Assembly (NCBI GenBank): GCA_947038135.1
Contig: CAMQVM010000001.1
Coordinates: 1-39,813 of the forward strand
DNA: 39,813 nt
Direction: 5' to 3'
Source: an uncultured Rikenellaceae bacterium
Lineage (GTDB): Bacteria > Bacteroidota > Bacteroidia > Bacteroidales > Rikenellaceae
The position numbers and the translations under genes were made by a program. Of this stretch, positions 1,613 through 39,660 are shown piece after piece. Numbering within the stretch: position 1 is the stretch's first letter; every line of letters begins with the position of its first letter. The notes under the pieces are model-generated. The model made no database searches and was not told the DNA's origin. It was given only the letters and a program-made list of their open reading frames with translations.

Positions 1613-1635
1613 TATAAAGAGTCACTAAAGCGAGG
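1613..1635 (+). promoter_or_regulatory. Dispersed motif copy A (TATAAAGAGTCACTAAAGCGAGG), T3/T7-promoter-like; about 50 bp upstream of the lipoprotein-1 start
   Basis: 16/23 identity to the T3 promoter AATTAACCCTCACTAAAGGGAGA, including the full TCACTAAAG core. The predicted +1 would be G at 1630. Confidence 0.4.
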
Positions 1636-1687: not shown

Positions 1688-4600
1688 ATGAGTAAAATTA
1701 GATATATATGTATGTTATTGGTTTTTATATTCTCTTCGTGTGAGGAGAATATGGAAGTGCCTAATATTCCCAATAAGCTTACAGCTAAGTTGAGTGAGTT
1801 GCCTAGTGAAGTAGTAGTAGGCAATAGCTATAATGTAAAGCTAGTTGCTACCTCTTCTGAAATTGTGTCTATCAAAGGAGGGTTTATTTTTGCTGGTGGT
1901 ACATCATCTATTGATGGTAAAGATATACCACTGGAGGAGTGGTTGCCACTTTCGAGCAACTCTGCTACTATCAGCATCAAATGTGTTAAGCAAGGGTTGC
2001 AAACTTTACTCTTTCAGTTGAAAGATGGTAAAGGGCAGTTATTCACCATAGAGCAAAAGATAACTGCCAAACCTACATCATATAGTGCTCAAATTGAGCC
2101 TCTGAAAACAGAGGTGACAAGTATAGATATACCTATTCCATTTGTCGTTACAATTGATAATAACTCTCCTAGAGATAGTTATAATATAACATCAAGCTCA
2201 CATGAGTTATCAGAAGATGTTGTGAGTGGTGATACTGTTTATATCAAGATGCCCGATTTTGGAATGAATACAATTATATGCGAAGTTACAGATGAATATG
2301 GTAGTACAGCTCAGGTAGTTGCTCGTGTTAAGATTTCTCAACTCAACCAAGATGATATTATAAAAGCTGACCTAAGCACTATCAAGGATTATAACAAAGA
2401 ATACCCTATATCTCTGTTATTTAAGGATATAAATACACCTAATGTGCATTGGTGTTACCAAAGCGATACTCCTATTGTGCTAACTTTGAAAGATGGTACA
2501 GCAATAGAGCCATCAACACCAGTACTGCTTGATAGTACAGTAGTAGATATGCTCGTAAATGTTGTGGCAACTGAAAATTTATCAAATGCCAGTACTGGTA
2601 ACATATCTATTCAACTAGATATCGTGGGCGAATTGATAACAAAAAACTTTGAATATTCTATTAGCAAAAATACACTAAGCTTTGAATTTCCAACAAAGTT
2701 AGATTTTCAGTACAATGAATATTCAGAGCTCTCAACACCATTTGAATTTACATCGCTTAGTTCTCGAAGTTCTGATTTAACAATGAAAATTGATTATGAT
2801 AACACTTTTGGCACACTCTACTATAAAGATATAGCCATTGTTGATGGTAGCTCTATTGCTCTTGACACTCTTGTTCAATCATTATCATATAAGGCAAAAA
2901 AGGAGGGTGAAACAAATTTATCTGTTGTGTTATCAGACCACAACAAACAAGCAATATCAAGTAATGCTAATATTAGCATTGAAACTAAAGAGATGCTGTT
3001 AACACTATCACCTGCACTAAATACCACCTATTACAACAACGAATTAATAGATATTAACCTATTTCTTGTTGATGGCAATTTAGACACACCCTCTCAAATA
3101 TGCACCCTCTCTAGTTCTGCAAGTGGTGAGCTGTATATCAATGGCGTTAAGCAGGTAGATAATAGCTTTTATATCGAGCCAAATAAACAAAGCATAGTAC
3201 AATTTAAACCAATTAGTTACGGTGCTTATAACATCAATTTTAAAGTTGAAGATTGGCGAGGGGCAACAGCCGTAAGCCATCATTTCAATGTGCCTTGTAA
3301 ATTAGCTCTAACAGTTGATGGCAAAGGCTACGCAACTTGGAATAGTGGTAACGGCACAGTGTACCAACAAGGTGATAAAACCACCTTATCTGCTCGTGAT
3401 GGTGTGGGTAGCTTCAATGGCTGGTATGATGAAAATGGCACTCTTTTATCTTCTGCAAGAAGCTATGAGGTTAATTTTACAACAGATAAGGATATTACAG
3501 CTAAGTTTGTCGGTAAAAATGTTGTATTGGAAATATTCAAGCAGTCAGATAGTGATGTTATCACAGGTGATGGCAATTATATCGCTGGTGACAATGTAAC
3601 AATATCGGCACACTCTAATAGTTCATTACGCTTATTTTCACATTGGGAAGATGCCTACACATTTGAAATTTTGTCTAACAAAGCTACTTATAACTTTGTT
3701 ATGCCCTCTTTTGATTTATCGCTCAGAGCTGTTTTTTCAGAGCAAGCAGATATGGTGCGTATAGAGGTTGATTATGATGGCACTCTTGGAACTGTGCAGG
3801 GTGAGGGGTTAGTCCAGCGAGGAGTAACAACACAAGTAAGCGCTATTGCTTCTAATAATGCAGAGTTTAAAGGGTGGTTTGATAGCTCAAATAGACTAGT
3901 TAGTAATAATAACCTATATCAATTTACCCCTACCTCTGACATGAGGTTAACAGCTAAATTTGAAAAACCTGAATACACACTAAAATTACAGCACAAATAT
4001 TTTTACGATACAAATTTTCACACGGAAACAGAACAGCTGTCGGAAGAAAATACAACGGTGCAAAAAGGCGATATTATAACGCTTAACACAAATATACTAA
4101 ATGCTAAAAAATATGAGTTTGTTGGCTTTTATGAAAGAGGAAAACTCATATCAACCGACGCTAATTTTAAAAGAATCATCAAAGATGAATATGCTGTAAT
4201 TAATATCGAAGCTAGATATATTTATCAAATGATAGATATAACTCTAAATGCTTATGGGGGCTTAGGAGTAGAGCTAATTTTAGAACTTGTATCTACTGAT
4301 TATCCATCAACAGTACAGGGCGAAGTACCTAAACGTATTATTGCAAATAAAGAGATAACCTTTAGAACAAAATACGGCACAAAATATAAGATGTTAGGCA
4401 ATGAAGCAACTGGCTCTAGGTGGGATAGAATTTATATTATATTAAGGGGTGATAGAACATACTTAAATCCAAATGGCAATATTCCTGAATATGAGTGGCT
4501 GGGCACCGGCGGAAACTATTATATAAACGACGATGAAAATAGCTTTGATATGCGTTTTATTGAAGATACGTATGTGAAAATTGATGCAGAAACTATATCT

Positions 4601-4834
4601 TATAGAGCAAGTTTAACGCAACACGTAGGTTATGAAATAGCAAGAGTTATTACTGGTGGTGATTTAAGCCATGGGCAAATAAAAACATTTGAAGCTGTAG
4701 TTTATGATGAAAGTTATGAGTTTATACATCACTATGACATTGGCAAAAACAAAATTATTATTGAGCCAAAATATTCTGTAATGATGCTTGGTGACGTTCA
4801 AATTGAAACTATATTTAGAAAAAAAACATTATAG
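1688..4834 (+). CDS. Giant surface lipoprotein 1 (1048 aa): Ig-like repeats, about 4 divergent InlB-B-repeat (Listeria-Bacteroides repeat-like) domains, and a C-terminal domain
   Basis: Lipobox-type signal (LVFIFSSC) followed by acidic CEEN, as in the Bacteroidetes surface-export signal. Repeated ~70-aa units of the form G.V.G.G.Y..G..V..SA....F.GW........Y.F......L.AKF. Confidence 0.8.
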   Translation: MSKIRYICMLLVFIFSSCEENMEVPNIPNKLTAKLSELPSEVVVGNSYNVKLVATSSEIVSIKGGFIFAGGTSSIDGKDIPLEEWLPLSSNSATISIKCVKQGLQTLLFQLKDGKGQLFTIEQKITAKPTSYSAQIEPLKTEVTSIDIPIPFVVTIDNNSPRDSYNITSSSHELSEDVVSGDTVYIKMPDFGMNTIICEVTDEYGSTAQVVARVKISQLNQDDIIKADLSTIKDYNKEYPISLLFKDINTPNVHWCYQSDTPIVLTLKDGTAIEPSTPVLLDSTVVDMLVNVVATENLSNASTGNISIQLDIVGELITKNFEYSISKNTLSFEFPTKLDFQYNEYSELSTPFEFTSLSSRSSDLTMKIDYDNTFGTLYYKDIAIVDGSSIALDTLVQSLSYKAKKEGETNLSVVLSDHNKQAISSNANISIETKEMLLTLSPALNTTYYNNELIDINLFLVDGNLDTPSQICTLSSSASGELYINGVKQVDNSFYIEPNKQSIVQFKPISYGAYNINFKVEDWRGATAVSHHFNVPCKLALTVDGKGYATWNSGNGTVYQQGDKTTLSARDGVGSFNGWYDENGTLLSSARSYEVNFTTDKDITAKFVGKNVVLEIFKQSDSDVITGDGNYIAGDNVTISAHSNSSLRLFSHWEDAYTFEILSNKATYNFVMPSFDLSLRAVFSEQADMVRIEVDYDGTLGTVQGEGLVQRGVTTQVSAIASNNAEFKGWFDSSNRLVSNNNLYQFTPTSDMRLTAKFEKPEYTLKLQHKYFYDTNFHTETEQLSEENTTVQKGDIITLNTNILNAKKYEFVGFYERGKLISTDANFKRIIKDEYAVINIEARYIYQMIDITLNAYGGLGVELILELVSTDYPSTVQGEVPKRIIANKEITFRTKYGTKYKMLGNEATGSRWDRIYIILRGDRTYLNPNGNIPEYEWLGTGGNYYINDDENSFDMRFIEDTYVKIDAETISYRASLTQHVGYEIARVITGGDLSHGQIKTFEAVVYDESYEFIHHYDIGKNKIIIEPKYSVMMLGDVQIETIFRKKTL

Positions 4835-4922: not shown

Positions 4923-4979
<57 letters not shown>

Positions 4980-5041: not shown

Positions 5042-5085
5042 GCACCGCTAAGGTTGTTTGCAAAAACAGCCTTAGCGGTGCTTTT
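5042..5085 (+). terminator. Intrinsic-terminator-like hairpin 1
   Basis: 12-bp stem GCACCGCTAAGG / CCTTAGCGGTGC followed by TTTT. Confidence 0.6.
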
Positions 5086-5109: not shown

Positions 5110-5155
5110 GCACAACCGAGGATATTTTAATCGATAGCCTCTGTTGTGCTTTTTT
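5110..5155 (+). terminator. Intrinsic-terminator-like hairpin 2
   Basis: 12-bp stem GCACAACCGAGG / CCTCTGTTGTGC (one mismatch) followed by TTTTTT. It ends only about 22 bp before the lipoprotein-2 ATG. Confidence 0.55.
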
Positions 5156-5177: not shown

Positions 5178-8100
5178 ATGAAAAAGCTTTTATTATTTTT
5201 ATCAATTTTCACATTAATGAGTTGTGAAAGAGAAAATCTGTTCCTTTTTGAGAACTTCACCCCTGAGCTCGTCTACAATGGCATTGCCGTGGAACAAGGC
5301 GACACCACCTATTATTCCAGTTATACTGGCAAAGAGTTAGAGATTAGAATTAATCTCAATAACACTGCATCAAAAGAAAATTCCGAAATTTACAACATCT
5401 CTGTAATTAATAGAGAGGGTGTGCAATCTTCTATGAAGTTTAAAAATACAGATTTTGAAGTTGCATATAAAGAGGTATTTGGCTATGAGTCCATAACAGC
5501 AGATGATTTTTTAACTTTTGTTCTAAAACCACTTGAAGAAGGTGAGTTCACCTATGATTTTGAAATTTCTAACTCTGTTGGAAAGCAAGTTATCAAGGCT
5601 AAATTCTCTATAGTAACACCTATCTATGACATAGATTTAGGCGAGTTGCTAGATGTTGATAGTTTGGATTTGGAGCGCCCTAAATCCTTTGATTTGAGGA
5701 TTACAGACCCTTTGTCAAAAACAAAATCATCGCAGAAGATAAAAGCTAGTTATCGCTTTATTAATGGTGGCGGTAACTTTATCAATGCTGCAACTAATGA
5801 AGAGGTTACCGAGCTTACCGAGGGTATTAACAAAATTTCTGTTAACACCTCTAGTTTTGGCGCAAATGATATTGAGTTGACAATTACAGATAGCCAAGGA
5901 AGAGAGCAAAAAGAGGTTATTAGGTTGAAAAGCAAGAAACCCGAATTTGCAGTTATCGGCAAGAATATTAAGAGCACTATAATTAATGGTACAGATGCCA
6001 CAATTCAAGTTGATATTGATAATTTCATTCATCCAACTAATAACAGCTTTAACCTTACCTATGCTATAATAGATGTAGCCACTAGAGGTGAAATTGCAGA
6101 CACGACAATTTTGTCAACGCGTAAGGTAAAAGCTAATGCTATAAGTGGCATTATTACAGATACTTTAAGTGTACCAATTGAAAAAATAGGAAACCAAGAA
6201 ATTCATGTGTTTGGCACTGATAAATTTGGCTCAACCAAAAATGATCTCGTTAGAGTTAACGCCATAGATAGCGAGCTAACTATATCAGATGCAAAAGAGC
6301 TAACAGGTGCTGTTAATACTGCTATACCTTTTGTTATTGAGGTTGAGAGTAGCAATGGAGAAAGCTCTGATATAAAAAAAATCAACATCAAATTCAGCTC
6401 ATCGCAAGAAAATGCAGGTGTTGTAAAATTGAAAGATGATGTTATTACTTCTATCGACATAAAAGTAAACACTACCAATGAGTTTACCTACCTACCAAAG
6501 GTAGCAGGAAAATCAACACTTACAGCTATTGTAACATCATATATCAAAGAAGAGATATATGAGGTAAGAGAGTTAGTTTTTCCTATCAATACTACTCTTG
6601 GAGCAATTGAATTAGTTGAAACAGGTATAGAAGAAGGTGCTATTCATGAACTTAACAACCCAATAAACTTTACTCATGTATTAACAGAGATAGGTTACAC
6701 AGGTGATTTCAAAGTTCAATTTAACAGAATTGCAGGCAAGGGCACACTATCTACACCTACTATCAATGATATTGCTCACGCTACTACAATTGATATCGCA
6801 AGTGGCGTTAATACCAATTACACCTATCTGCCTACTACCGCTGGTAAGCATGAATTACATTTTATCATCACAGATAGCAATTTGCAAACTATTACACACA
6901 AAATCACTTTTGTTGTAACAGATAGCGATATAGAGGTAATAACAACAGATAGAGCGACACCGACAAAAGGCAAAACCAGCAGCTGGTTTTTAACTTTTTC
7001 AAAAGAGCACTACCAAGCTAGCAACTTCAATGTTGTGATGTCGCAAACAGTTGGCACTGGTGAATTTAAATTTGGCTCAAAAACAATATCTGCAAATGCT
7101 ACTTTTGATGTACAAAAAGATATTGCCTTTGCCTTTAGCTATACTCCATCTAGCCATGGCGATCACACTATTACGCTCAATATCCAAGCACAAAATAGCT
7201 CTACAATCACACCTTACATAATTACCTTTAATGTGCCTGTTGTACTAGCTGGAGAAGTTGATTTATTTGGCACAGCAGAGCTTCAAGGCTATGGACTTTA
7301 TAATGTAGGCACAGCAGTTACACTGTCATCAACTCCAGCAGTAGGCTATTCAATTGCAAGTATTAGCACCAAAAATAGCACTGGAGAGTTAACGCAAGTT
7401 GTTGGGGCTGGTGAAAAATCGCAAGTCGTTGAATATAAACTCGAAGCATTAGATGATTTAAATTTTGTTACGAAAACAAAAATAAATGATTATGCAATAG
7501 ATGTAAATGCTAACCCTATTGAGGGTGGCACTGTTACAGGTGGCGGTATCTATCCCTATAACACTGCTATCAATATATCATCTACACCTGCTAGAGGATG
7601 GTTGTTTAAGGGCTTATTTGATGGCACACACAAACTGTCAGATGCAGCACTATATAACTACACAATTCCTGCAAGCGATAAATCATTAGTTGCGAATTTT
7701 GAGAAGCAAAAACACCAAGTTAGCTTTATTAGCAATAATGTAGCCTTTGGTACTGTTATAGGTGGCGGAATCTACGAATATGGTGCTACTGTTAACCTTG
7801 TTGCAACGGCTACTTTAAATTATCGTTGCACTGGTATATGGGAGGGCGACACACAGGTTAGTGAAGATAATACATATACATTCACAGCAGGTGAAACACC
7901 AAGAAGTTTCAGAGCAGTTTTTGGACCAGTGCAACATACTGTTACTATTACACAGAGTGGCGATGGTGATTTTACACCACTTACAGGAAGTGTTGTTAAT
8001 CATGGCGAAGACCTCCTATTAATGTTAGTATCACACAATAAGATTTCAACTAATTTTGATGGGTGGTATATTAATAATGAATTAATATCACTTGATAATG

Positions 8101-8633
8101 CTTACCGATACAAAGTAACATCAACTATAACTATTGAGGCACGTGCAACTTTAAAACAATATTCAATTGGTATTAATAATCGTTATTTAACCTATAAATG
8201 GGGTGAGCAAGTAAATTTATCTCATGGGCAGGATTTCCCAAGTGATATACCTACTAATAGATTTATTAAGTGGCTGAAAAACAGCGAGGAGTTCAGCACT
8301 CAACGAAATATATCCTTTCTTGCGCAAGAGCAAGGAACAGAGCTATTAAATGGATCTTTATTGGCACCAAAAACAGAATTTGTAGCTGAAGTAGCTGAAA
8401 TCTATATATCACATGTAGATGCAAGCGGTTACTATGTCCTTGCAATCGGGAAGCCTGTATCAGTTCATGTTCATGCAAAAATGAGGTTTCCTACACAGGT
8501 CAATAATGGCAGTCTAGTCCAATGGCTTGAACACGCCTACACAATTCCAGCTGGAAAAACATCGGTTCGAGTTTCGAAAAGGATAGGAGATTTAAGATGT
8601 ACATTTATTTCTACTAATATTACCAACCCTTAA
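5178..8633 (+). CDS. Giant surface lipoprotein 2 (1151 aa): Ig-like repeats, about 4-5 divergent InlB-B-repeat domains, and a C-terminal domain
   Basis: Signal peptide with lipobox (FTLMSC) followed by CERE. Same architecture as lipoprotein 1, for example GGTVTGGGIYPYNTAINISSTPARGWLFKGLFDG...LVANF. Confidence 0.8.
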   Translation: MKKLLLFLSIFTLMSCERENLFLFENFTPELVYNGIAVEQGDTTYYSSYTGKELEIRINLNNTASKENSEIYNISVINREGVQSSMKFKNTDFEVAYKEVFGYESITADDFLTFVLKPLEEGEFTYDFEISNSVGKQVIKAKFSIVTPIYDIDLGELLDVDSLDLERPKSFDLRITDPLSKTKSSQKIKASYRFINGGGNFINAATNEEVTELTEGINKISVNTSSFGANDIELTITDSQGREQKEVIRLKSKKPEFAVIGKNIKSTIINGTDATIQVDIDNFIHPTNNSFNLTYAIIDVATRGEIADTTILSTRKVKANAISGIITDTLSVPIEKIGNQEIHVFGTDKFGSTKNDLVRVNAIDSELTISDAKELTGAVNTAIPFVIEVESSNGESSDIKKINIKFSSSQENAGVVKLKDDVITSIDIKVNTTNEFTYLPKVAGKSTLTAIVTSYIKEEIYEVRELVFPINTTLGAIELVETGIEEGAIHELNNPINFTHVLTEIGYTGDFKVQFNRIAGKGTLSTPTINDIAHATTIDIASGVNTNYTYLPTTAGKHELHFIITDSNLQTITHKITFVVTDSDIEVITTDRATPTKGKTSSWFLTFSKEHYQASNFNVVMSQTVGTGEFKFGSKTISANATFDVQKDIAFAFSYTPSSHGDHTITLNIQAQNSSTITPYIITFNVPVVLAGEVDLFGTAELQGYGLYNVGTAVTLSSTPAVGYSIASISTKNSTGELTQVVGAGEKSQVVEYKLEALDDLNFVTKTKINDYAIDVNANPIEGGTVTGGGIYPYNTAINISSTPARGWLFKGLFDGTHKLSDAALYNYTIPASDKSLVANFEKQKHQVSFISNNVAFGTVIGGGIYEYGATVNLVATATLNYRCTGIWEGDTQVSEDNTYTFTAGETPRSFRAVFGPVQHTVTITQSGDGDFTPLTGSVVNHGEDLLLMLVSHNKISTNFDGWYINNELISLDNAYRYKVTSTITIEARATLKQYSIGINNRYLTYKWGEQVNLSHGQDFPSDIPTNRFIKWLKNSEEFSTQRNISFLAQEQGTELLNGSLLAPKTEFVAEVAEIYISHVDASGYYVLAIGKPVSVHVHAKMRFPTQVNNGSLVQWLEHAYTIPAGKTSVRVSKRIGDLRCTFISTNITNP

Positions 8634-8705: not shown

Positions 8706-9248
8706 ATGAAAAAAATATTCTTATTACTGCTCCTAACAACAGGAGCAAACACATTATTAATAGCCCAAAAAAGGGTAAGCAATGGATTTATATTAGATGT
8801 AGCTAGTGGTATATCTTACACTGACAACATTGGCTCTGCTAGCACTATTGGGGTAGAGAAGATATTTAAAAATGCTTTGCACTCAATACAGATAGATATG
8901 TTATATGTCAATCAAAATTTTAATACACCTTATGATAATGTTAAGGTGAAATCTCAGAGTATTGAACTAGTTGCATATTATAGCTATAATGTATATAGCA
9001 ATAGATATCTCACCGCCAATCTTAATATTGGTGGTTTTGTAGGATATCGCTTTAATCACTCACCAAACCAAGGATATTATTTACAAAAGACAGATTACCT
9101 ATCTAGTGGAGTAGCCATTGCTGCACAGGTGAACTTTCCAATCAATAATAAACTAGGGGTGTTTATTGAGCCTACTGCAATGTATAATTTTTCAATCGCT
9201 GAAAAGATGAGGTTTTCAACCCAGCTCGGAATAAGGGTTAAACTTTAA
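8706..9248 (+). CDS. Small outer-membrane beta-barrel protein (porin/OmpA-like barrel family), 180 aa
   Basis: Signal peptide ending LLIAQ. Alternating hydrophobic beta-strand pattern with aromatic-rich strands. Size fits an 8-stranded barrel. Confidence 0.6.
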   Translation: MKKIFLLLLLTTGANTLLIAQKRVSNGFILDVASGISYTDNIGSASTIGVEKIFKNALHSIQIDMLYVNQNFNTPYDNVKVKSQSIELVAYYSYNVYSNRYLTANLNIGGFVGYRFNHSPNQGYYLQKTDYLSSGVAIAAQVNFPINNKLGVFIEPTAMYNFSIAEKMRFSTQLGIRVKL

Positions 9249-9271
9249 TATAAAGAGTCACTAAAGCGAAA
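9249..9271 (+). promoter_or_regulatory. Dispersed motif copy B (TATAAAGAGTCACTAAAGCGAAA); about 40 bp upstream of the coupling-protein gene
   Basis: Identical to copy A through position +4. It starts directly after the stop codon of the barrel gene. Confidence 0.4.
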
Positions 9272-9313
9272 CACAAACAAGTAAATCATTTTAATTACAA
9301 GTAAATATTTATT

Positions 9314-10957
9314 ATGAATGAAATTATAAGTATATTGATAGGCGTAGGGGGCGCATTGTTGTTTGAACAAAACAAATTATTGTTTGCATTTGGCGTACTG
9401 CTACTTACTGCAATACTGGTGTTATTTGATATCACTGGTGTTTTATTTTTGCTTGCAATATTTTGCATATCTGCTTTTTTCACTCTGTTTATAAAATCTT
9501 ACTTGATGGGTAAGAGATTCACAAAAACACCTGAGGAGCGTTTAGAAGCCTCAAAATATCAAGTAGAGATACCTGTAAAAGGTGGCAGTAATGTGTATAT
9601 TAAAAATCTCAGACAAGGCATTGTTGGTTATGGAGCTTCGGGAAGTGGAAAATCAGAATCATTAGGATGTACACTTTTGGAGCACTTTAATAAGTATAAT
9701 TTTGCGCTAGTATTATATGACCACAAAAATTTTGAGCTAACTCAATTTGCATATAATATCTATAGAAATAATACTAATGTATCATTTCACAGTTTCGCAA
9801 TTCAATCTCCTGAACATTCGGTGCGGTTAAACCCACTCGACCCTTTATATATCAAAGATGAAGCTTCTCTTAATGCCATTCTTAATGGTATCATAATAGG
9901 ATTTACTGGAAAAGAACCTACCGATGACACATCTAGGTACTTTCATAATGGTGCATTAAGTTTGCTAGCTGGCGTAACTTGGCGGTTAAAAACAGAGTTT
10001 CCCGACAAATGCAACTTACCTTATCTCGCTGCATTTATTCTCATGGCTGACCACGACGGTATAGAATATGATGCTAAAGGCAATGAATATAAGATACCTC
10101 TGCAACTACTTAAAGAATTTATAGAGGTAGATGATAGAGCTTCAATGCTAGCTAGTGTTTTTATGAAAATAAGTAACCCTAAAGAGCAAAGCTCATTGCT
10201 TGGTACTGTCGCATCTTATATGCGTACGATCTCTGACCCTGCGGTATTCTACCTGCTAAGTGCTAATGATTTTTTTCTTGACATAAATAAGAAAAACAAT
10301 AGAAAAGTATTATCATTAATTAATACTACTGGAACGCTAGGAAGTGTAATAACTCCTATCATATCTATGGTTGTGGAAACTATTTTTCAGAAAATTTCAG
10401 AATCATCAAATGAAGATGATATAGCATTTGTTCTTGATGAAGCGCCTCGACTACGAGCACAAAACTTAGGCGCACGAGTATCTACATTACGTGCCTTAGG
10501 AGTATCGTTTGTTTACTTGATGCAAGATAGAGTGCAGGCGAAAGTTGCAACAGATGGCAAGGAATATCTGATAGATGAAGTACTGGCTAACCTATCTACT
10601 AAATTTCTAGGCAAAGCCAATGACCCAAAAAGTGCTAAGAACTATGAGGGTTATTTCGAGGAGATAAAAGAAACACAAAAATCTATAACATCAGGCGGTT
10701 TTTTCTCGAAAGGTGGCAATAGAACTACCACATCTAAGAAAGATAGGCGTGAGGTAAAAGACTATGAATTTCAAAGGTTAAAACCTGGGGTGTTCTATTT
10801 TTTGTCAAATGAAGTTTCAAAAAAAATCACTTTTGCATACAACAAAATTAAGCATGACAAGGTGATGCCTCCGAAAGTTAGAAACATAACAATCGAAGAA
10901 TTAGAAGCAAACTATTTGCACATAATAAATGATGCAAAAACTTGCTTCTACAATTAA
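9314..10957 (+). CDS. Type IV coupling protein (TraG/TraD/VirD4 family), 547 aa
   Basis: Two N-terminal TM helices. Walker A GASGSGKSES. Walker-B-like FVLDEAPRL. Located at the head of the tra cluster. Confidence 0.85.
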   Translation: MNEIISILIGVGGALLFEQNKLLFAFGVLLLTAILVLFDITGVLFLLAIFCISAFFTLFIKSYLMGKRFTKTPEERLEASKYQVEIPVKGGSNVYIKNLRQGIVGYGASGSGKSESLGCTLLEHFNKYNFALVLYDHKNFELTQFAYNIYRNNTNVSFHSFAIQSPEHSVRLNPLDPLYIKDEASLNAILNGIIIGFTGKEPTDDTSRYFHNGALSLLAGVTWRLKTEFPDKCNLPYLAAFILMADHDGIEYDAKGNEYKIPLQLLKEFIEVDDRASMLASVFMKISNPKEQSSLLGTVASYMRTISDPAVFYLLSANDFFLDINKKNNRKVLSLINTTGTLGSVITPIISMVVETIFQKISESSNEDDIAFVLDEAPRLRAQNLGARVSTLRALGVSFVYLMQDRVQAKVATDGKEYLIDEVLANLSTKFLGKANDPKSAKNYEGYFEEIKETQKSITSGGFFSKGGNRTTTSKKDRREVKDYEFQRLKPGVFYFLSNEVSKKITFAYNKIKHDKVMPPKVRNITIEELEANYLHIINDAKTCFYN

Positions 10958-16149: not shown

Positions 16150-17212
16150 ATTATTTGAAACACTCGAAAAATTGGGGATATCCAAAACGATGTTTTGCTT
16201 CCTCGTCCTTGCACTGATTTTTTTAATTAGCGTAGGTATTTACCAATTTAACTCGTCCAGTGGTCCGAAAACCACTATCAAAAAAGAGTCACAAATACTT
16301 GATAGTCTATATAGTCAAGAGCATAAGTTATCTGTTTTTCACAAAAAAATAGAAATGTATGAGAATGCTTATCAAGAAGAGAACAAAGGAGCCGATGATA
16401 AAGCTATGCCAAACATCAATCGTATTACTTTATCAGGAGCAATTGAAGAGAAAAAGAAGCAAGATAAAATTGACAATTTAGAAAAACAAGAGTATAGCGA
16501 TCGTCTTGAAAGAATTTCTACAAATAACAATGCTTATAGCAGTAGAATCGATGAGATAGGCGCAAATAATCGTGTTACTCCTAGCAGAGTTGCAGCACCT
16601 AGTAATCCTCAATATGAAGAGCTAGAACGCAAGATTAACAGTAGAAACAATCAAGAGCAGAAGCAAGAGAAGACACCTGCTGCAGCTCCAGTTGCTGCAA
16701 ATAATTTAACTACCAATTTTGCTGCTTCATCTAACAATGCTAACAGCACAGGTAATCTTATTAAGGCTACAATTCACAAAACACAAGTAGTCAAAAATAA
16801 TCAACCTGTTGTAATTAGAACGACTGAAACTCTTAAAATAAACAACATATCTATACCTCGAAATTCTTTATTGATTGGTTTAAGCTCCTTTGGCGCAAAT
16901 CGTTTGCAAATTAAAATATCAACTATAAAGTATGCAAATAATCTCATACCTGTTAACATAACCATATACGGTAGTGATGGTATAGCTGGGTTACCAATTC
17001 AAAATAATGAGATAATACAAGAAGTAGGAAATGATGCAGTAGATGACGTAGTAAATGAAGTCGACAATGAACTAAGCCAATTAGGAATATTAGGTAAGGT
17101 TACTGGAGGTATTATCAAACAAGGCTCTCGCTTAACTGCCAATGCGGAGAACAAAGAGGTGAAATTAATAGACAATCAACAAATATTTATCAAAATCAAT
17201 AATAATAATTAA
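16142..17212 (+). CDS. traM: TraM-like protein (VirB10-like)
   Basis: N-terminal TM helix, Q/N/E-rich low-complexity linker, beta-rich C-terminus. Overlaps the traK stop and precedes traN. Confidence 0.6.
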   Translation: MNKLFETLEKLGISKTMFCFLVLALIFLISVGIYQFNSSSGPKTTIKKESQILDSLYSQEHKLSVFHKKIEMYENAYQEENKGADDKAMPNINRITLSGAIEEKKKQDKIDNLEKQEYSDRLERISTNNNAYSSRIDEIGANNRVTPSRVAAPSNPQYEELERKINSRNNQEQKQEKTPAAAPVAANNLTTNFAASSNNANSTGNLIKATIHKTQVVKNNQPVVIRTTETLKINNISIPRNSLLIGLSSFGANRLQIKISTIKYANNLIPVNITIYGSDGIAGLPIQNNEIIQEVGNDAVDDVVNEVDNELSQLGILGKVTGGIIKQGSRLTANAENKEVKLIDNQQIFIKINNNN

Positions 17213-17213
17213 A

Positions 17214-18059
17214 ATGAAAACAAAAATGAAAACACTTATGACATTAATACTAGTATTAGTAGTATCTACCTCTAGCGCACAATCTATCAAAGATTTAAGA
17301 TTAAAAAATGATAAGATAATGCAACTTGTATTTACAAATGATATATCTTCTGCTAAGATATCCCGACCCGATATAATAAATATATCCGTAGAGAAAAATG
17401 TTGCATACCTTATGCCTGTATTAGATTTTGAAAATAGCTGTAACCTTACAATCATTACAGATAGCTTATACTATGAATTTAATGTAAACTATGATTCTCT
17501 AGCATCTCAATTTACATACTTGATTACCGAGGACGAAGCAACATTTAATATTAAATATAAAGGGTCACTAAAGCGAGATATTGTTGCATCAACACCAGTT
17601 CCGACAATAGCAGTTCCAAAACACTCCTCAGAATTTACATCAATTATAAGAAGCGGTGGGTACTTATTCAATAACAATGTTGTTGTTAATGATGTATATT
17701 TATCGCTCAATGGTATATATACAAGAGAAGAATTTATATATATGTCTGTGACAATAGATAATGATTCAGATATAGATTACGATCTCGAGAATTTCACCTT
17801 TCTTATTTCGGCAAAAGAGAAAAAAACTATCACAACAGACGAATTTAATCAGGTTCAAATATTGGGTCAATCACGCAAACCTGCTGTGATCGCAAAAAAA
17901 TCATCCGCTAAAATTGTATTTGCATTGCAGAAATTTAACCTTAACAAAGATAAAGTACTTACTATTGATATGATTGAGAAGAATGGAGAGCGCAATATCA
18001 CTTTGACTGTTAAACCTCACACTATTGCAAAATCTCAATCTGTTAAACATGAAAATTAG
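17214..18059 (+). CDS. traN: TraN-like protein (VirB9-like, DUF4138-like)
   Basis: Signal peptide ending SSAQ, 281 aa, last gene of the traK-M-N string. Confidence 0.6.
   Translation: MKTKMKTLMTLILVLVVSTSSAQSIKDLRLKNDKIMQLVFTNDISSAKISRPDIINISVEKNVAYLMPVLDFENSCNLTIITDSLYYEFNVNYDSLASQFTYLITEDEATFNIKYKGSLKRDIVASTPVPTIAVPKHSSEFTSIIRSGGYLFNNNVVVNDVYLSLNGIYTREEFIYMSVTIDNDSDIDYDLENFTFLISAKEKKTITTDEFNQVQILGQSRKPAVIAKKSSAKIVFALQKFNLNKDKVLTIDMIEKNGERNITLTVKPHTIAKSQSVKHEN
17556..17578 (+). promoter_or_regulatory. Dispersed motif copy C (TATAAAGGGTCACTAAAGCGAGA), embedded in frame within traN
   Basis: Same 22/23-nt motif. Here it encodes YKGSLKRD. Confidence 0.25.
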
Positions 18060-18146: not shown

Positions 18147-18199
18147 ACATAATATAACATTAAGTTTTTTGACAGAGAAAGATAATTACTAATAAAAAA

Positions 18200-18232
18200 A
18201 TAGGGGTAAAGCATAACGCTCGACCCCTATTT
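18200..18232. terminator. Bidirectional terminator hairpin
   Basis: Stem ATAGGGGT / ACCCCTAT flanked by A7 on the left and TT on the right. It serves the convergent minus-strand mob operon. Confidence 0.6.
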
Positions 18233-18254
18233 AATTGATTGAGGTTCGCACCTC

Positions 18255-18277
18255 TCTCGCTTTAGTTGCTACAAAGA
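18255..18277 (-). promoter_or_regulatory. Degenerate motif copy G (core CAACTAAAGCGAGA) overlapping a host-type TATCTTTG box (18272-18279, minus)
   Basis: The ACTAAAGCGAG core is shared with the other copies, but the upstream half diverges. Confidence 0.2.
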
Positions 18278-18316
18278 TAATACAACTATTTTAATTTGCA
18301 AATAATTACACTTTCT

Positions 18317-18645: not shown

Positions 18646-19254
18646 CTATTTTTGCATTTCAAACAGTAGCTCACAATAATCAAGAGGGTTGATAAATACA
18701 CCATTTTTCTTAATTCCATAGTGCACGTGTGGACCTGTACTATCTCCTGTGCTACCGCATAAACCTATCGGTTTTGAAATCTTGACAACTTCACCTGTAA
18801 CCACTAATATCTTAGATAGATGACCATATACTGTTTCAAAACCGCATATATGGCGAACTTTGACAAAATTACCTAATCTTCTATCATACCCTTGACTAGT
18901 CACCTTACCATCTGCTGACACTACAACTGTATCACCATGGCTCAATGGCAGATCTATGCCATTATGATGCTTAACATTACCATGTATCGGATGAACTCGG
19001 CGACCATAATGTGAACTAACACGTAACTGGTGGTAAACAAAAGTAGGAGGTATACAAGGTATTTGATAGATTAAATCACTCTCCCACTCTATTAATTTCA
19101 ATAGTGATATAATACTATCACTACTATTCATTGATGTTATTAGCGCCTTGATATCCCGCTCTATTTTTTCATCATTGCTGATAGTAGCATTAGATGAACA
19201 TACAGCAATAACGATTATCATAACTAAGACTTTACATTTCATTTGTATTTTCAT
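18646..19254 (-). CDS. M23-family metallopeptidase (peptidoglycan hydrolase) with signal peptide
   Basis: Motifs HNGIDLP and GSTGDSTGPHVHYGIKKNG (HxxxD / HxH of M23). Overlaps the relaxase stop. Confidence 0.85.
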   Translation of the reverse strand: MKIQMKCKVLVMIIVIAVCSSNATISNDEKIERDIKALITSMNSSDSIISLLKLIEWESDLIYQIPCIPPTFVYHQLRVSSHYGRRVHPIHGNVKHHNGIDLPLSHGDTVVVSADGKVTSQGYDRRLGNFVKVRHICGFETVYGHLSKILVVTGEVVKISKPIGLCGSTGDSTGPHVHYGIKKNGVFINPLDYCELLFEMQK

Positions 19255-22200
19255 TTTTAAGTACTGTTTTTGTGATATCTACACCCAATGCGACAACATT
19301 AGCATAAGGAACTGCCTTAGAGATTAAAGACATTGCCGACCTACTCGCAACACCCTTAGCAGTCGATACAGCAATTTGTTTGATTCTTTCGTTTTGAATG
19401 CCTTTAACATTTTTGTACATTTTTATGCTCTTAATAGTTGTTTGATATGCTTTTTTATGCCCTTGTAATTCTGTATCAGTGGTCGAATATATAGCAGTTA
19501 TTGCCGCTCTCTTTAAATTATACCCCAATGCCTGTGCCATTGTTCTTTGCTCCAACATAACAAATTTATCCTCATTGAGATTATTATACTCTTTTGTTTT
19601 AGGAACAAACATTTTTCCACTCATGTAGTACGAATATTCTAATTTCGATATCTCTCGCTCTACGTCTTTGGCTCGCTTTTCATCTAGAGTAGGGTCAAAA
19701 GCTTTTTTACCTTCTTTTATATACACCTGTTCAACTTTATTTTTAGCCGCAATCTCAATGTTTTTGTAATCGTCCCTATTCAGAGTTTCAAAGTTATTGC
19801 GAGCGAATTTATTTTTATCAATATTTGCATAATCAATTCCTTGAATTTTAGGAACATTAATTATACCCTCTCGGTAGTAGAGGTTCTCCATCCTATTACT
19901 CTCAGTTCTTGTTCTCTCTTCAATCTCTTTTGGTGTTAGATTTTCGTATTTATTGTTGATTTTATCTTCTACAATTTTCTTGATAACATCTATGTCAATG
20001 CAGTTCAAAGGTTCAATATTTGACGTTTTGAATTTTGATAAATCTACATCTTGATAATCTCCTTTTGGGAGTAAAAATTCTACTCTACTTTTGATCGTTT
20101 TTCTCGTGACACCGAATAGAAATTTTTTTTCTGTTATTTTGGGGCTTCTATCCTTGGCGTAATATTTATACTCCAGCTTATTATACTCTCTTTCAATTAG
20201 CTTTGTTTTCTCCTCAATAGGCATATCACTTGGTGATTTTGCATTAACAATATGAGTAGCAACATCATGCAAAACTCTGTAATCGGCTTTATCCAAAGTT
20301 TGACCAGTCGACACGAGAAATTTTTCCTTGTCACAAGTAAGACCAAGATTTGGAATTGCTAGTTCTGAACGTAGGTAGTATGTATTTTCTAATACTTTCA
20401 TCTCTTTGTTAATCAATTCAATCCTATCAGCTTTATCAATATTAGGATTTAGTTCTGAAATTTTATACTCTGCCACCTCGCTTAGCACTTTGATATCCTT
20501 TGCAGTGAGCATTTTGGCTTCTGAAAATACCGCTTTATCAAACGTCACATCAACATCTTTAGGCACAGATATATTACCGTTATTCATATATTGATACCGC
20601 ATTTTTTCAACATCACTATATATTTGACGACTACGTTCCTTTTCCTCCAAGTCTAATTCCTTTGCATCTATCTTAATAGTTGCAATTTCTTTCATTTTGC
20701 CATAATCTGCACTTGTCAATGGCTTGTGTTCAGATATCTTAAACTTACTGTTTAATTCTACATCTGTATTGTACACGTACATCTCTCCAGTAGCAGCATA
20801 ATTTTTTTCCATCGACACAATTTCACTATATATCAACCTCTCTTTTTCCAAATCTTCTAACAATACATTATCATATCTAGCCTCTATTTTCTGCTCTGCC
20901 ACTGCAAACATAAGCTTATAATCAGCACTATTCAAATCAATTGCTCTACTGCTATCATCAATTACTCCAGTGTTATAATATACCCCCTCTAATGTTCTAA
21001 CTCCTCTCTCTATATAATAGTCACCTTTAAATTCCTTAAAGTTATCTCCAAGTCGCATATTAACCTGCGAAGAGGCTATATCATTGATTAAAGCATAATC
21101 TTCCTTTGTCAACGAGCGATACTCGGAGATAGCGAATTTAGTAGCATCACAATCAACACCTATATTAGGAATGATTAATCTATCATCTGCATTGTCGTAA
21201 GCATTTTTAATCTGCCATTTTTCTTTATTAATAAGATTGTATTTTTCCTTGTTTGTAAGATTTTCAGCGTAGGTATTAACCTTATAAATTGCTAATGCTT
21301 CAACGAAATCATTATCTAATTTAGTAAATGCCCTCTTTTCAGTAACATGAAAAATTTCTTTTTCATTAATATCAAAATCAACCTTATTGATAGATATATC
21401 CCCCCTATTGTAATATTGAGATTCTAAACGGTTATACTCTTTTTTGCACTCTTTGTCAAACCTATTTTTGTCAATAGTCATTGTATTAGTTGAATCGACA
21501 TGATAATTAGTTACATTGAAATGTGCTATTTTCTTAATTGTAATTATTTCTTTTTCTGATAAGATTCTATAATTAGTGAACACAAATTTACTTTTGTCAA
21601 TTGTTTCTGGTATTATTAAATCTTTAATCGCTGGTACATTAATAATACCTGTGCTATAATAGCTCATTTTCATTCTTCTAATACCTGTTAATACATCATT
21701 TTTATTATGTTTAGCCTCTGCAATAGTCTTAATAAAATCTAATTCTATACCAGTTATAGCATTGTAATTAACAACCTTGTAAACATCACTTAATGGTGGC
21801 ATTTCTTGCGAAAATCCTAAATCTTTTATCGCCTGAGGCAATGTTATCTCCCCAGTGCTACAGTAGCATTTTAACAATTCTTCTACATCCTTAGGTATGA
21901 TTATAGTTCCAGTGGTATAATAGCCAAACTCTATACTTTCATAACTGGTTAAAGCGTATTTGGGTGCGACACTCCCCTCTTCTATGCTCTTATAAATCTC
22001 GGCTAGCGCAATCATTTCATTTCTCAGCTCTGCATCTACATACTGAATTGGCACATGATTAAATATGTGATTACTTGGTATGCTCTCTTCGTTAATCGTC
22101 ACTAAACAATCAGTTGATTTATTAACATAAACATTTATCTTACCTGTTGATAAAAATTCATCGAATATTTTTTTGATGTTGTTTTCGATATCATTAGTAA

Positions 22201-26130: not shown

Positions 26131-26133
26131 CCT

Positions 26134-26420
26134 CTTGATCTTTTTTTTGTCTTCAGGGTGGGATGTCTTGGATAGCTCAGATGGGTGGTGGGATGTCTTG
26201 GATGGCTCGGATGGGTGGGGGCTCGGATGGGTGGTGGGATGTCTTGATCTTTTTTTTGTCTTCAGGGTGGGATGTCTTGGATAGCTCAGATGGGTGGTGG
26301 GATGTCTTGGATGGCTCGGATGGGTGGGGGGATGTCTTGGATGGCTCGGATGGGTGGGGGGCTTGGATGGCTCGGATGGGCGGAACTGGTGGAGCTGGTG
26401 GATCTGGTGGAACTGCTGGT
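26134..26420 (+). repeat. G-rich nested tandem repeats: 109-bp unit x2 (26134-26242, 26243-26351) containing ~30-bp subrepeats GGGATGTCTTGGATRGCTCRGATGGGTGGKG, then 9-nt repeats GANCTGGTG x4
   Basis: Periodicity read directly. The strong G skew on the plus strand contrasts with the AT-rich surroundings. A canonical G4 motif is at 26213-26238. Confidence 0.9.
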
Positions 26421-26433: not shown

Positions 26434-26538
26434 AAATACTTGTTTTTTTAAGTATTTACTTGTTTTATTCAAAATTTTTTTGTACCTTTGTAGGGATAAT
26501 TAACACTAACAAAAACACTAAAACTGTTTTGCTGACAG
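26434..26538 (+). promoter_or_regulatory. Promoter/leader cassette copy 1, with Bacteroidetes -7 box TACCTTTG at 26483-26490
   Basis: About 85 nt nearly identical to 26953-27037. The TAnnTTTG box is preceded by CTTG about 20 nt upstream. Ends 24 nt before the DUF2958 ATG. Confidence 0.6.
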
Positions 26539-26929: not shown

Positions 26930-27037
26930 AAATACTTACTTGTTTTTATAAATATTTACTTGTTTTATTCGGTTTTTTTTTGTACCTTTGTAGGGATAAT
27001 TAACACTACAAAAACACTAAAACTGTTTTGCTGACAG
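26930..27037 (+). promoter_or_regulatory. Promoter/leader cassette copy 2, with -7 box TACCTTTG at 26983-26990
   Basis: Near-identical repeat of 26434-26538, followed by a 96-nt leader to the ATG at 27133. Confidence 0.6.
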
Positions 27038-27132: not shown

Positions 27133-27744
27133 ATGATTATGTGGTTGGAACTTATGGCAAAAAAAATCATGTATCAAAATTGGTGGGATGCTCTTGGCGA
27201 GATTTACGAAAACTGTGTAGTTTCCAAAAGTAAGGCAACCAGCACAGGGCAATTCTTTACACCTCCAACCGTATGTGATATGATGGCGCAAGTAATTAAC
27301 GGTACTGAGCCTATTTTTAACAAAGATATTTCTGACCCTACCTGTGGCAGTGGTCGCAATTTACTTGCCTTTAATGCTATTAATCCAGGTAATAACTTAT
27401 ATGCTGAGGATATCGACAAAACAAGCTGTTTAATGACAGTTGCCAACTTTCTAGTTCATGGCATTAAGGGGGAGGTTGTTTGGCATGATTCTTTGGCGGC
27501 TACTTCGTGGTTTGGCGGCTGGAAAGTGAACGAGTTTTTTCATAATCCATTCTCTGAACTGTGTAACTTTCCCCATATGCGCCCAATAGAGCAATGTGAT
27601 AGTTATATAATGGCTATGCGTACCGCTGACAAAGTTACCCTATCAGGAGAGGAGAAAGAGATAAAAAAACCTATATCTGAAACAATAAACAAAGTTGTGC
27701 AAGTTCCAAATGTTCAGTTATCATTTTGGGATTTAGACTACTAA
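27133..27744 (+). CDS. N6-adenine methyltransferase-like protein (203 aa) lacking the catalytic (N/D)PP(F/Y) motif
   Basis: Motif X GQFFTPPTV, motif I DPTCGSGRNLL and motif II-like YAEDID are present. VVWHDSL sits where NPPF/Y is expected. Alternative ATGs lie close to 27133. Confidence 0.65.
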   Translation: MIMWLELMAKKIMYQNWWDALGEIYENCVVSKSKATSTGQFFTPPTVCDMMAQVINGTEPIFNKDISDPTCGSGRNLLAFNAINPGNNLYAEDIDKTSCLMTVANFLVHGIKGEVVWHDSLAATSWFGGWKVNEFFHNPFSELCNFPHMRPIEQCDSYIMAMRTADKVTLSGEEKEIKKPISETINKVVQVPNVQLSFWDLDY

Positions 27745-27799: not shown

Positions 27800-28267
27800 A
27801 TGATTATTAAATGCTTTGTGTACCGCAAGAAAAATAGTAAATTGCCTGTAATTTCTTTCGATAAATTACCTCTTGAACAAGTGTCTTCAAAACGTGCTTT
27901 TACTGGCACAAAAGTAAAAATTGAAACTTTAAAAAGAGCCTTTGGCATTGAGCTTGCCACCAGCTCCAGCACCAAAGATGTAAATGATTATATAACTGAC
28001 AATATATATAATACTCCTAAATGGGGTAAGTATCACACAATCTATAAGATTGTGCATAGTGAGATAATCCCAAATATTGAATATCTAGCTTACCAGTATT
28101 ATTTGGAAGTAGATTTGCATGGCACAATAGATTTTGAAATTGAAAAAAGTAATATTATATATTTCATCATGTCCGAGCTAACTGGCAAGCAAGTACAAAC
28201 ATATAACGGTTTAAATAATCCTATTGTTGAAATGAAAAAAATATACCCCAATGCCTGTGCGATATAA
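27800..28267 (+). CDS. Hypothetical protein, 155 aa (leading-region orphan)
   Basis: Clean ORF between two terminators. No motif recognised. Confidence 0.5.
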   Translation: MIIKCFVYRKKNSKLPVISFDKLPLEQVSSKRAFTGTKVKIETLKRAFGIELATSSSTKDVNDYITDNIYNTPKWGKYHTIYKIVHSEIIPNIEYLAYQYYLEVDLHGTIDFEIEKSNIIYFIMSELTGKQVQTYNGLNNPIVEMKKIYPNACAI

Positions 28268-28285
28268 AGGGTCACTAAAGCGAGG
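28263..28285 (+). promoter_or_regulatory. Dispersed motif copy D (TATAAAGGGTCACTAAAGCGAGG)
   Basis: A full motif copy of the G-variant at motif position 8. It overlaps the stop codon of ORF 27800-28267. Confidence 0.35.
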
Positions 28286-28320
28286 GCGAATTGGTGACGA
28301 TATCCGCAATGCCTGTGCGA

Positions 28321-28343
28321 TATGAAGAGTCACTAAAGCGAGG
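28321..28343 (+). promoter_or_regulatory. Dispersed motif copy E (TATGAAGAGTCACTAAAGCGAGG)
   Basis: One mismatch to the consensus. A strong hairpin plus T-tract follows about 35 nt downstream. Confidence 0.35.
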
Positions 28344-28374
28344 GCGGTTCGGTGGTGATGTTTCCTACAAAAAA

Positions 28375-28412
28375 AGAAAGCAAATACTTTCTTTTTAAAG
28401 TATTTGCTTTCT
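28375..28412. terminator. Bidirectional intrinsic terminator
   Basis: 16-bp stem AGAAAGCAAATACTTT / AAAGTATTTGCTTTCT flanked by an A-run and a T-run. Confidence 0.8.
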
Positions 28413-28427
28413 TTTATTTACTCTTTT

Positions 28428-33711: not shown

Positions 33712-33776
33712 ACTTACTTATATTAGTGTTATTAGTAATTATTTATATCTCTGCAAAGATACAAATAAATTATTAT

Positions 33777-33820: not shown

Positions 33821-33879
33821 ATAATACGCAATATTCTACGATTGATGTACTCAGATGTATTTTAAACCATTTGAGTGCG

Positions 33880-34245: not shown

Positions 34246-34249
34246 AATT

Positions 34250-39447: not shown

Positions 39448-39590
39448 AAAAAAATGACAAATTGTAGAGTTTAAAGCGGTGTGACTCCGAGTAGACAGCG
39501 TAAATATAGCCCTAAAAGCTGCATAGGGTAGCCGTAAATGAAATTAATCCCTCTTTAGGTAGTTTGGTATACCCCGACTGGCGACCTCGC
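39446..39590 (-). ncRNA. Candidate ~140-nt structured RNA between motif copy F and a U9 tract
   Basis: Relatively GC-rich, non-coding stretch with local stems (CCCTA..TAGGG; GGTATACC palindrome) and a long-range TAAAGCG/CGCTTTA pairing. Bounded by a promoter-like motif and A9 (39446-39454 on plus). Confidence 0.3.
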
Positions 39591-39607
39591 TTTAGTGACC
39601 CTTTATA
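39585..39607 (-). promoter_or_regulatory. Dispersed motif copy F (reverse complement TATAAAGGGTCACTAAAGCGAGG)
   Basis: Perfect consensus on the minus strand. The predicted +1 is at 39590. Confidence 0.35.
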
Positions 39608-39618: not shown

Positions 39619-39660
39619 GGATAAGCAGTTATCTTCATAAATGAAGATAACTGCTTATCC
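39619..39660. repeat. 19-bp perfect inverted repeat GGATAAGCAGTTATCTTCA-TAAA-TGAAGATAACTGCTTATCC
   Basis: Read directly. Lies between motif F and the AT-rich tract and iterons. Confidence 0.85.

Follow-up and report, generated by a model that had tools for sequence, protein, structure and literature searches.

The promoters of the Autographiviridae phages T3, T7, SP6 and K11 are contiguous, non-palindromic blocks of ~23 bp with an AT-rich 5' end, a G at +1 and a purine-rich start. The canonical Bacteroidetes promoter, that of sigma-ABfr, carries TAnnTTTG at -7 and TTTG or TTG near -33, and Bacteroides also has non-canonical promoters such as motif PM2 (PMC7366714). Capnocytophaga plasmid NZ_CP027230 has five copies of a ~50-nt canonical TTTG/TAnnTTTG promoter module, and the Chryseobacterium plasmids NZ_MN657149 and NZ_CP034172 carry 4-5 intergenic copies of a 22-nt non-canonical unit, AAATGTTTTTTCCGACTATAAAA, that contains no TAnnTTTG. 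Among the proteins of these two Chryseobacterium plasmids are, in one, a sigma-70-family member and, in the other, a protein with an RNA polymerase alpha-CTD domain, and AAATGTTTTTTCCGACTATAAAA may represent a plasmid-specific promoter class. Here we analyzed a stretch of 39,813 nucleotides from an uncultured Rikenellaceae bacterium (contig CAMQVM010000001.1, assembly GCA_947038135.1; hereafter the window), which is an essentially complete circular plasmid of the Bacteroidota conjugative type. Six full copies (A to F) of a 24-nt block, ATATAAAGRGTCACTAAAGCGAGG, are dispersed over this plasmid, and half of the block recurs at a further locus, G (Table 1).

The block has all the features listed above for the Autographiviridae promoters, and its core, TCACTAAAG, is identical to T3 -8..+1. 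As in the T3 record, where some promoters lie within processing hairpins, multiple co-oriented copies occur at gene boundaries, the AT-rich 5' end overlaps or abuts stop codons (B and D) and hairpins start directly at the promoter (A and E). It departs from that class in that our searches found no cognate polymerase, the replicon is a Bacteroidota conjugative plasmid and not a phage, positions -12..-9 differ with -10 polymorphic, one locus has -6..+5 only and lies behind a host promoter, and one copy faces converging genes. Like the Capnocytophaga and Chryseobacterium modules, it is present as near-identical short units at 4-5 intergenic sites of one plasmid, mostly before operons, and like AAATGTTTTTTCCGACTATAAAA it is a non-palindromic sequence of ~22 nt without TAnnTTTG. 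Its sequence is nevertheless not similar to either module; AAATGTTTTTTCCGACTATAAAA is common to two plasmids whereas the present block was seen in no other sequence, and none of those modules is known inside a gene, unlike copy C. Because related plasmids routinely repeat short regulatory modules in this way, a non-canonical transcription signal that is copied around, and confined to, a plasmid belongs to a known type; what sets this one apart is its likeness to T3 promoters, its occurrence within a gene and the half copy that follows a host promoter.

An earlier note, made from the letters of the window alone, had described a dispersed 23-bp motif, TATAAAGRGTCACTAAAGCGAGG. All six full copies were recovered at the positions it gave with 0-2 mismatches, against a chance expectation of 0.00 (100 shuffles), although the length needed amending: the base before the motif is A in 6/6 copies, making the true block 24 nt. 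When the copies were aligned with 60-nt flanks, similarity broke off sharply on both sides, with G as the last base, and variation was confined to positions 4, 22 and 23 and to position 8, which is A in one half of the copies and G in the other. An nhmmer profile of the six copies detected nothing further in the window above E ~0.5 and lent no support to an eighth partial copy at 39462-39485 (+), which was discarded. Five of the six independent loci are intergenic (P ~8e-5). The abutment of B on a TAA stop and the stop codon supplied by D, both reported previously, were borne out, as was the absence of a TAnnTTTG box from the spacers before lipoprotein gene 1688 and coupling-protein gene 9314; more broadly, the canonical sigma-ABfr promoter (TAnnTTTG at -7) is absent from the six full copies and their flanks.

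Table 1. Positions of the block, of associated features in the window, and of the AAATGTTTTTTCCGACTATAAAA unit in two Chryseobacterium plasmids.
Feature	Position	Strand	Context
Copy A	1613..1635	+	31 nt past rep stop; 52 nt before ATG of lipoprotein gene 1688-4834
Copy B	9249..9271	+	directly after TAA of outer-membrane protein (OMP) gene 8706-9248; 42 nt before ATG of coupling-protein gene 9314-10957
Copy C	17556..17578	+	in frame within traN (DUF4138, 17214-18059)
Locus G, body of putative ~72-nt small RNA	18194..18254	-	hairpin GAGGU/ACCUC (18254-18241), A/U-rich linker, terminator and U7
Locus G, half copy	18255..18267	-	AACTAAAGCGAGA; matches 3' half of motif only
Locus G, canonical Bacteroidetes promoter	18272..18301	-	TTG-N19-TATCTTTG, immediately upstream of half copy; consensus from PMC7366714
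Copy D	28263..28285	+	own TAA is stop of open reading frame (ORF) 27800-28267; first unit of tandem duplication
Copy E	28321..28343	+	second tandem unit; followed by small hairpin (28329-28359) and 28-nt linker
Terminator hairpin of D/E unit	28372..28415	+	19 bp and T-rich tail, z = -4.5
Copy F	39585..39607	-	sole full minus-strand copy; in 370-nt non-coding stretch between ORF 38929-39447 and iterons
Perfect 19-bp hairpin	39619..39660		11 nt from F; upstream of F (-), downstream of anti-motif (+)
AAATGTTTTTTCCGACTATAAAA sites, NZ_MN657149 (L115)	2085, 16141, 35144(-), 42605		
AAATGTTTTTTCCGACTATAAAA sites, NZ_CP034172 (L116)	3207(-), 17546(-), 20476(-), 23977, 9326		

A G-rich extension claimed for A, D, E and more loosely F fits two nested stems in A, D and E, fits F poorly and is missing from B and C. 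In A, D and E, 78% of cells are paired in register as opposed to 25-56% when the alignment is slid, which gives weak support for a hairpin, and a small stem, CGAG/CUCG (1631-1643), follows copy A. The motif with its flanks reached no significant folding z-score and B and C are unstructured, on which grounds we rejected a conserved structured RNA as a general explanation; an Rfam scan of the window likewise returned nothing at the motif and an abiF RNA alone. Copies D and E belong to a tandem duplication of 58-bp units (28246-28303 and 28304-28361) that are 84-86% identical (9 differences by hand count). The hairpin or U-tract that the earlier note placed after both E and F was found in full after E, where a 19-bp terminator hairpin is followed by a T-run, but after F it is reduced to a U-run (39454-39446, ~130 nt downstream) without a convincing hairpin. 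Copy F is antisense to the local plus-strand transcription, and together F and A flank the ori-rep module, both facing outward. No hairpin lies downstream of copy B; it is followed by two inverted ACAAGTAAA boxes (9277-9305), which are inverted copies of an extended -33 element, TTTACTTGT. The same element is shared by two pairs of duplicated canonical promoter modules elsewhere in the window, 26437-26514 / 26937-27014 and 33733-33824 / 34658-34749 (90% and 76% identical).

Locus G had been listed as a degenerate minus-strand copy at 18255-18277. Its 3' half (AACTAAAGCGAGA, 18267-18255) is indeed a match, with 11 contiguous identical bases where we would expect ~0.01 (our own estimate from base composition), whereas the supposed 5' half is the -7 box of a canonical Bacteroidetes promoter. 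Transcription from that promoter would start on the AAC just before TAAAGCGAG, and the resulting small RNA would end at a terminator hairpin with U7 at 18228-18194 (z = -4.3). Units E and G are organized alike, with ACTAAAGCGAG followed by a small hairpin and, beyond a linker, by a strong terminator, and ATATGAAGAGTC in E occupies the place that the host promoter takes in G. Because of this parallel we infer, by analogy, that the 5' half of the motif is a promoter recognition part and the 3' half a start site with a conserved leader; the comparison of E and G is the sole internal evidence that separates the two halves functionally. The relaxase operon converges on traN, and the putative small RNA gene at G occupies the gap between them. 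In the related plasmid L033, a promoter-hairpin-terminator unit of similar build lies just after traN at 16261-16378 (+), a likeness of layout and not an established homology.

We then considered whether the block is found elsewhere. The 21-mer had 0 matches in 185,579 species-representative genomes (GTDB), IMG/VR and JGI metagenomes, and relaxed 18-, 16- and 14-mers gave 21, 30 and 58 matches, all single; those short-motif matches that were examined, which came from the sets of 21 and 30, do not extend past the searched pattern. Within IMG/VR, no contig held at least two copies of TAAAGRGTCACTAAAG or GTCACTAAAGCGAG, which cover motif positions -15..+1 and -9..+5 (30 and 58 matches, all single), and the 30 viral matches examined lie mostly in apparently coding sequence. 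A blastn search of GenBank phages with the motif had no match, and in GTDB genomes and JGI metagenomes the relaxed motif yielded either nothing or isolated chance matches. Four related plasmids, picked via the TraG ATPase (47, 40, 37 and 38% identity), contain neither the motif nor a comparable dispersed repeat. Among the sequences searched, the 24-nt block is private to this plasmid. The closest of these relatives, L032, keeps the same lipoprotein-OMP-coupling protein-tra-M23-relaxase order without it, and its OMP-coupling protein spacer measures 44 nt as opposed to 65 nt here. Copy C, confirmed to be in frame and to encode YKGSLKR, coincides with an 8-codon in-frame insertion in a variable linker of TraN (IKYKGSLKR) that is missing from six aligned homologues. 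Given this insertion and the longer spacer, the block has been copied into place at the DNA level.

A promoter-type role is supported by the position of copies at the head of two operons that lack canonical promoters, by the intergenic bias and by the layout of G. Judging from sequence alone, we favor, at a probability of roughly 45%, the explanation that the 24-nt block is a copied promoter-plus-leader module whose reader is something other than the host primary sigma factor. The 5' half (ATATAAAGRGTC) would be recognized by another transcription enzyme or factor, and the 3' half (ACTAAAGCGAGG) would provide the start site and a conserved first stretch of RNA, which in A, D and E would fold with the ~15 nt that follow into a small hairpin close to the start of the transcript. 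Expression of the lipoprotein module would be driven or raised by copy A, and that of the coupling-protein/type IV secretion operon by copy B. The transcripts of D and E would be short and stop at the terminator 28372-28415, a start inside E giving an RNA of ~80-90 nt. A short non-coding RNA next to the origin would arise from F, and C would serve as an internal start within traN. Were the reader a T7-class single-subunit polymerase acting in trans, transcription would begin at the G of AAAG; were it the host polymerase with an alternative sigma factor or an activator, the start would fall ~5 nt earlier, as expected at G. Transcription from the copies and its exact start positions are our inference, whereas the copies, their sharp edges and intergenic placement, the TraN insertion, the absence from relatives and the parallel between E and G were observed directly. 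A promoter in the coupling-protein spacer would be normal for this plasmid family, since L033 has a canonical TATCTTTG promoter ahead of the same gene.

Several observations weigh against such a module. Copy C lies inside traN and F faces converging gene ends, in neither case with an obvious product, and A and B could equally lie inside longer transcripts because no terminators insulate them upstream. The missing TAnnTTTG box is weak evidence, given that lipoprotein gene 2 (5178) has neither a canonical promoter nor the motif. The 11 conserved transcribed bases exceed what a promoter needs, and the co-orientation of 5/6 loci with local genes is not significant alone (P = 0.11). No gene for a sigma factor, NusG, activator, regulator or polymerase was detected on the plasmid with Pfam, NCBIfam and PHROGs at permissive thresholds, a PADLOC scan returned defense genes only, and AlphaFold gave no usable model for the ORFs adjoining D and F (predicted local distance difference test scores of 40 and 29). 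Visual comparison with sigma-54, extracytoplasmic-function sigma factor, extended -10 and boxA signals gave no fit. A promoter-plus-leader module, if that is what the block is, would show how a conjugative plasmid can rewire two large operons and several small RNAs by copying one 24-bp unit, even into a coding region, and would establish a second, non-canonical type of promoter in a phylum for which a single class is well understood.

The most specific form of this explanation, and a special case of it, is the one put forward in the earlier note: the copies would be promoters of a T3/T7-class single-subunit RNA polymerase supplied by a phage or another replicon, with the start at the G of CACTAAAG. 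Of that proposal the resemblance, the missing polymerase and the promoter-type role all stood, but for a T7-class enzyme we found nothing beyond the resemblance, and we regard it as unlikely. The resemblance itself is genuine. Identity is 16-17/23 to 14 annotated T3 promoters and 15-16/23 to T7, in agreement with the original counts, and the probability that a composition-matched random 23-mer reaches 16/23 against T3, T7, SP6 or K11 is ~6e-5, a value that overstates the evidence because the motif was chosen for its resemblance. CACTAAAG is present in 6/6 copies, and every position common to T7, T3, SP6 and K11 (CACTA-AG and the +1 G) is matched. Conservation runs sharply bounded over -18..+6, the upstream end of the block is AT-rich, its variation falls at -14, -10, +5 and +6, and its mismatches to T3 cluster at -12..-9, the specificity region of T7 polymerase promoters. 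The six copies are also the six top T3-matrix scores in the window, yet these scores amount to 7-9 bits as opposed to 32-40 for real T3 promoters, and the specificity position -10 is mixed (A in three, G in three). Locus G retains -6..+5 without -17..-7, the part that a T7-class enzyme must contact, and copy F is directed at converging gene ends.

The enzyme itself was not located. As had been stated before, the window encodes no RNA polymerase, there being no match to PF00940 or another polymerase domain in any ORF. A polymerase hidden in the 1898-aa relaxase was likewise dismissed, as apart from MobB/DUF5712 nothing in PDB or Pfam matches this protein, whose tail consists of an array of ~90-aa repeats. 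No sequence with at least two motif copies emerged from IMG/VR, GenBank phages, GTDB genomes or JGI metagenomes; no Bacteroidota host appeared in the organism summary and 60 of the 2739 GenBank phage records with a T3-like polymerase; and the literature held nothing on T7-like promoters in Bacteroidota plasmids or satellites. It is doubtful that the plasmid acquired a T7-class promoter set through which an unsampled phage or other replicon switches on lipoproteins, type IV secretion and short RNAs. By analogy with the T3 primary origin, which follows phi1.05, tandem D/E with its AT-rich DNA could even act as a phage-polymerase-primed origin. Were the phage-polymerase version true, the plasmid would either parasitize phage infection or escape from it, and T7-supergroup polymerases with a T3-like promoter core would act in Bacteroidota; with a naturally occurring plasmid under the control of a phage enzyme, crosstalk between plasmids and phages of gut Bacteroidota would become directly testable.

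Alternatively, the copies could act as RNA targets, an arrangement that we consider improbable. Copies A to E and the half copy at G would be sense target sites, and an RNA bearing the anti-motif of the F region would pair with them and lead to cleavage or decay in the manner of fertility inhibition. The transcript of ORF 38929-39447 would carry the anti-motif in its 3' untranslated region, immediately ahead of the 19-bp hairpin. Pairing would extend over 21-23 nt with the lipoprotein and secretion leaders, traN and the D/E tail, but over 11 nt with the small RNA of G. Every locus except F has the required sense orientation, all sense copies lie downstream of canonical promoters with no terminator between, and the shared sequence is at the single-stranded 5' end of G. 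A single regulator with many targets would also explain the near-perfect conservation of the whole block, and the three one-sided C-to-U changes in the A/D/E hairpin keep G-U pairs, suggesting that this strand is used as RNA. The strong hairpin 11 nt after the anti-motif is suggestive as well; no U-tract follows it on either strand, however, and neither a promoter nor a U-tract marks a plus-strand RNA at F. The anti-motif is partly paired in the predicted fold, three of the five targets have A opposite the anti-motif C at position 8 (a mismatch and not a wobble), A and B stop 42-52 nt short of the start codons, and the T7-like core is left unexplained.

The nearest described parallel to such a regulator is the FinP/traJ antisense control of conjugation, in which the FinP gene lies opposite the one target of its RNA. 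The single antisense copy, F, would suit a short plasmid RNA able to pair with a transfer-gene leader; unlike FinP, this putative RNA would act in trans on five identical sites, and we know of no plasmid antisense RNA that recognizes as many identical 23-nt targets in trans, which counts against the idea. If F does make a regulatory RNA, fertility would be controlled in a new way, through several identical targets in trans.

Still less probable, in our assessment, is a DNA operator or roadblock, in which a plasmid or host protein would bind the block as a head-to-tail dimer and control the operon heads jointly, and the half site at G would cover the promoter start. The block contains an internal direct repeat, TAAAGnG-N4-TAAAGnG, with an 11-bp phase (5 loci versus 0.0 in shuffles); the freely varying position 8 is the 'n' of the first half site, and G keeps exactly the second, at its promoter start. 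Plasmid-wide operator sets are classical: KorA/KorB of IncP plasmids, omega of inc18 and StbA/ArdK of IncW have conserved short sites scattered over replication, maintenance and transfer modules, some of them away from promoters. The block resembles these networks in the dispersal of short conserved sites across the modules of one plasmid, but theirs are palindromes or repeat arrays bound by identified plasmid proteins, whereas here there is a single asymmetric 24-mer for which no candidate binding protein was found. All 24 positions are conserved, the spacer included, which is more than in typical operators; the sites in traN and the D/E tail have no promoter to control, and a strand bias would not be expected.

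The weakest alternative, a non-regulatory repeat left by copy-paste as a scar, a small selfish insertion or a recombination or cassette junction, would account for the 8-codon TraN insertion missing in six homologues, the ~21 nt added to the OMP-coupling protein spacer relative to L032, the absence from four related plasmids and the sharp boundaries, but it is very improbable for a sequence that is not palindromic, has no terminal repeats or target duplications, occurs 0 times in 185,579 reference genomes, shows a strong intergenic bias with a half copy at a promoter start that suggests function, and differs between D and E at 2/24 positions in the block versus 7/34 in the flanks (hand count, not statistically significant). 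The cassette- or recombination-junction form, also raised in the earlier note, falls with L032, whose syntenic gene order without the motif speaks against cassette borders.

Other candidate identities were rejected. With 0 copies of the 21-mer in 185,579 genomes, the block is not a known chromosome-wide repeat of the repetitive extragenic palindrome (REP) or miniature inverted-repeat transposable element (MITE) type, although the true host genome may be unsampled, and it has no dyad symmetry or terminal repeat. For a Tus-Ter-type terminator (GTTGTAAC core), no Tus-like match was obtained and orientation follows gene direction; aligned by hand to TerA, the block matched at 12/19, and we judged resemblances to Ter sites and to invertase crossover sites no better than chance. 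A ParB/KorB-type centromere or operator is disfavored by the asymmetry of the block and by the absence of any copy near parA (32545-33318) or its upstream region. JUMPStart/ops elements, which recruit RfaH ahead of long operons such as F-like tra operons, share with the copies a position in long-operon leaders and co-orientation with transcription, and the 3' half of copy E with its extension aligns 17/21 (one gap) with the 3' part of the E. coli JUMPStart, TAAAGCCAGGGGCGGTAGCGTG; the JUMPStart 39-mer used for comparison was confirmed as a real sequence. An ops/JUMPStart loader was nevertheless rejected: the conserved part here is the upstream block and not the ops-like part, E has GGCGGTTC in place of the core GGCGGTAG, a region that is absent from B and C, RfaH is proteobacterial, and no NusG/KOW protein is encoded on the plasmid.

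The plasmid itself is densely organized, with a coding share of 89%. Iterons of 32 bp lie at both window ends beside an orphan rep gene, whose product has zero homologues among 5.8 billion proteins. Eight canonical TTG-N18-21-TAnnTTTG promoters stand directly ahead of genes or the G RNA unit, and their presence identifies the host as a member of the Bacteroidota. The contig derives from ENA assembly ERZ28620936 and, to judge by its name, probably belongs to the codfish-gut study PRJEB31095 (PMC7054092). The transfer system is of the Bacteroidetes type, comprising a coupling protein, TraG ATPase, TraM, TraN/DUF4138 and a MobB/DUF5712 relaxase; the remaining cargo includes ParA, a resolvase, two HigBA modules, AbiD with an abiF RNA, a PDC-S31 candidate defense gene and methyltransferases. 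A megablast of both plasmid halves against PLSDB had no DNA-level match, and the best TraG matches in that database are Flavobacteriia plasmids at ~30% identity. A reference-genome scan with the TraG ATPase protein produced no confirmed relative, and exact look-ups of the TraG ATPase, ORF 27800-28267 and TraN returned no record of other plasmid assemblies.

Several further features of the plasmid deserve mention. The relaxase (ORF 19232-24928 (-), 1898 aa) consists of a MobB/DUF5712 domain of ~300 aa followed by ~13 repeats of ~90 aa that carry a recurring 'YY.tG.i.vPk' signature without a match in Pfam, NCBIfam or PDB sequences. Between the mobilization operon and a divergent promoter, G-rich tandem repeats of ~30 bp (GGATGTCTTGGATGGCTCGGATGGGTGG...) occupy 26133-26392, the minus strand of which is a Pro/His/Ser-rich ORF. 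Just downstream of the D/E terminator, two adjacent short ORFs (28418-28626 (-)) look like one XRE-family helix-turn-helix protein split by a frameshift, and ORF 27133-27744 corresponds to the N-terminal part of an N6 DNA methylase only; the region around D and E may be decaying. Upstream of lipoprotein gene 2 (5178-8633) lies a (GA)27 microsatellite (4925-4977), followed by two terminator-like hairpins (5042-5081 and 5110-5149). The relative L032 has a (GA)n tract (1-28) ~150 nt upstream of its homologous Flg_new_2 lipoprotein gene, and this conserved repeat may be a phase-variation switch.

A 743-bp inverted repeat (33886-34626 / 36738-37477, 86-89% complementary) is made up of two HigB/HigA-like toxin-antitoxin modules and flanks the resolvase gene (34730-35422) and AbiD (35476-36414); the whole arrangement looks like a composite or invertible defense cassette. 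The abiF RNA (36431-36467 (-), Rfam RF03085, 57.8 bits) is directly upstream of the AbiD/Abi_2 gene and sits 12 nt downstream of a canonical TATCTTTG box (36487-36480). The DUF2971 gene at 37830-38885, which belongs to the PADLOC candidate defense family PDC-S31 (E = 4e-31) and to PHROG 1762, forms a cluster with AbiD and HigBA just upstream of copy F.

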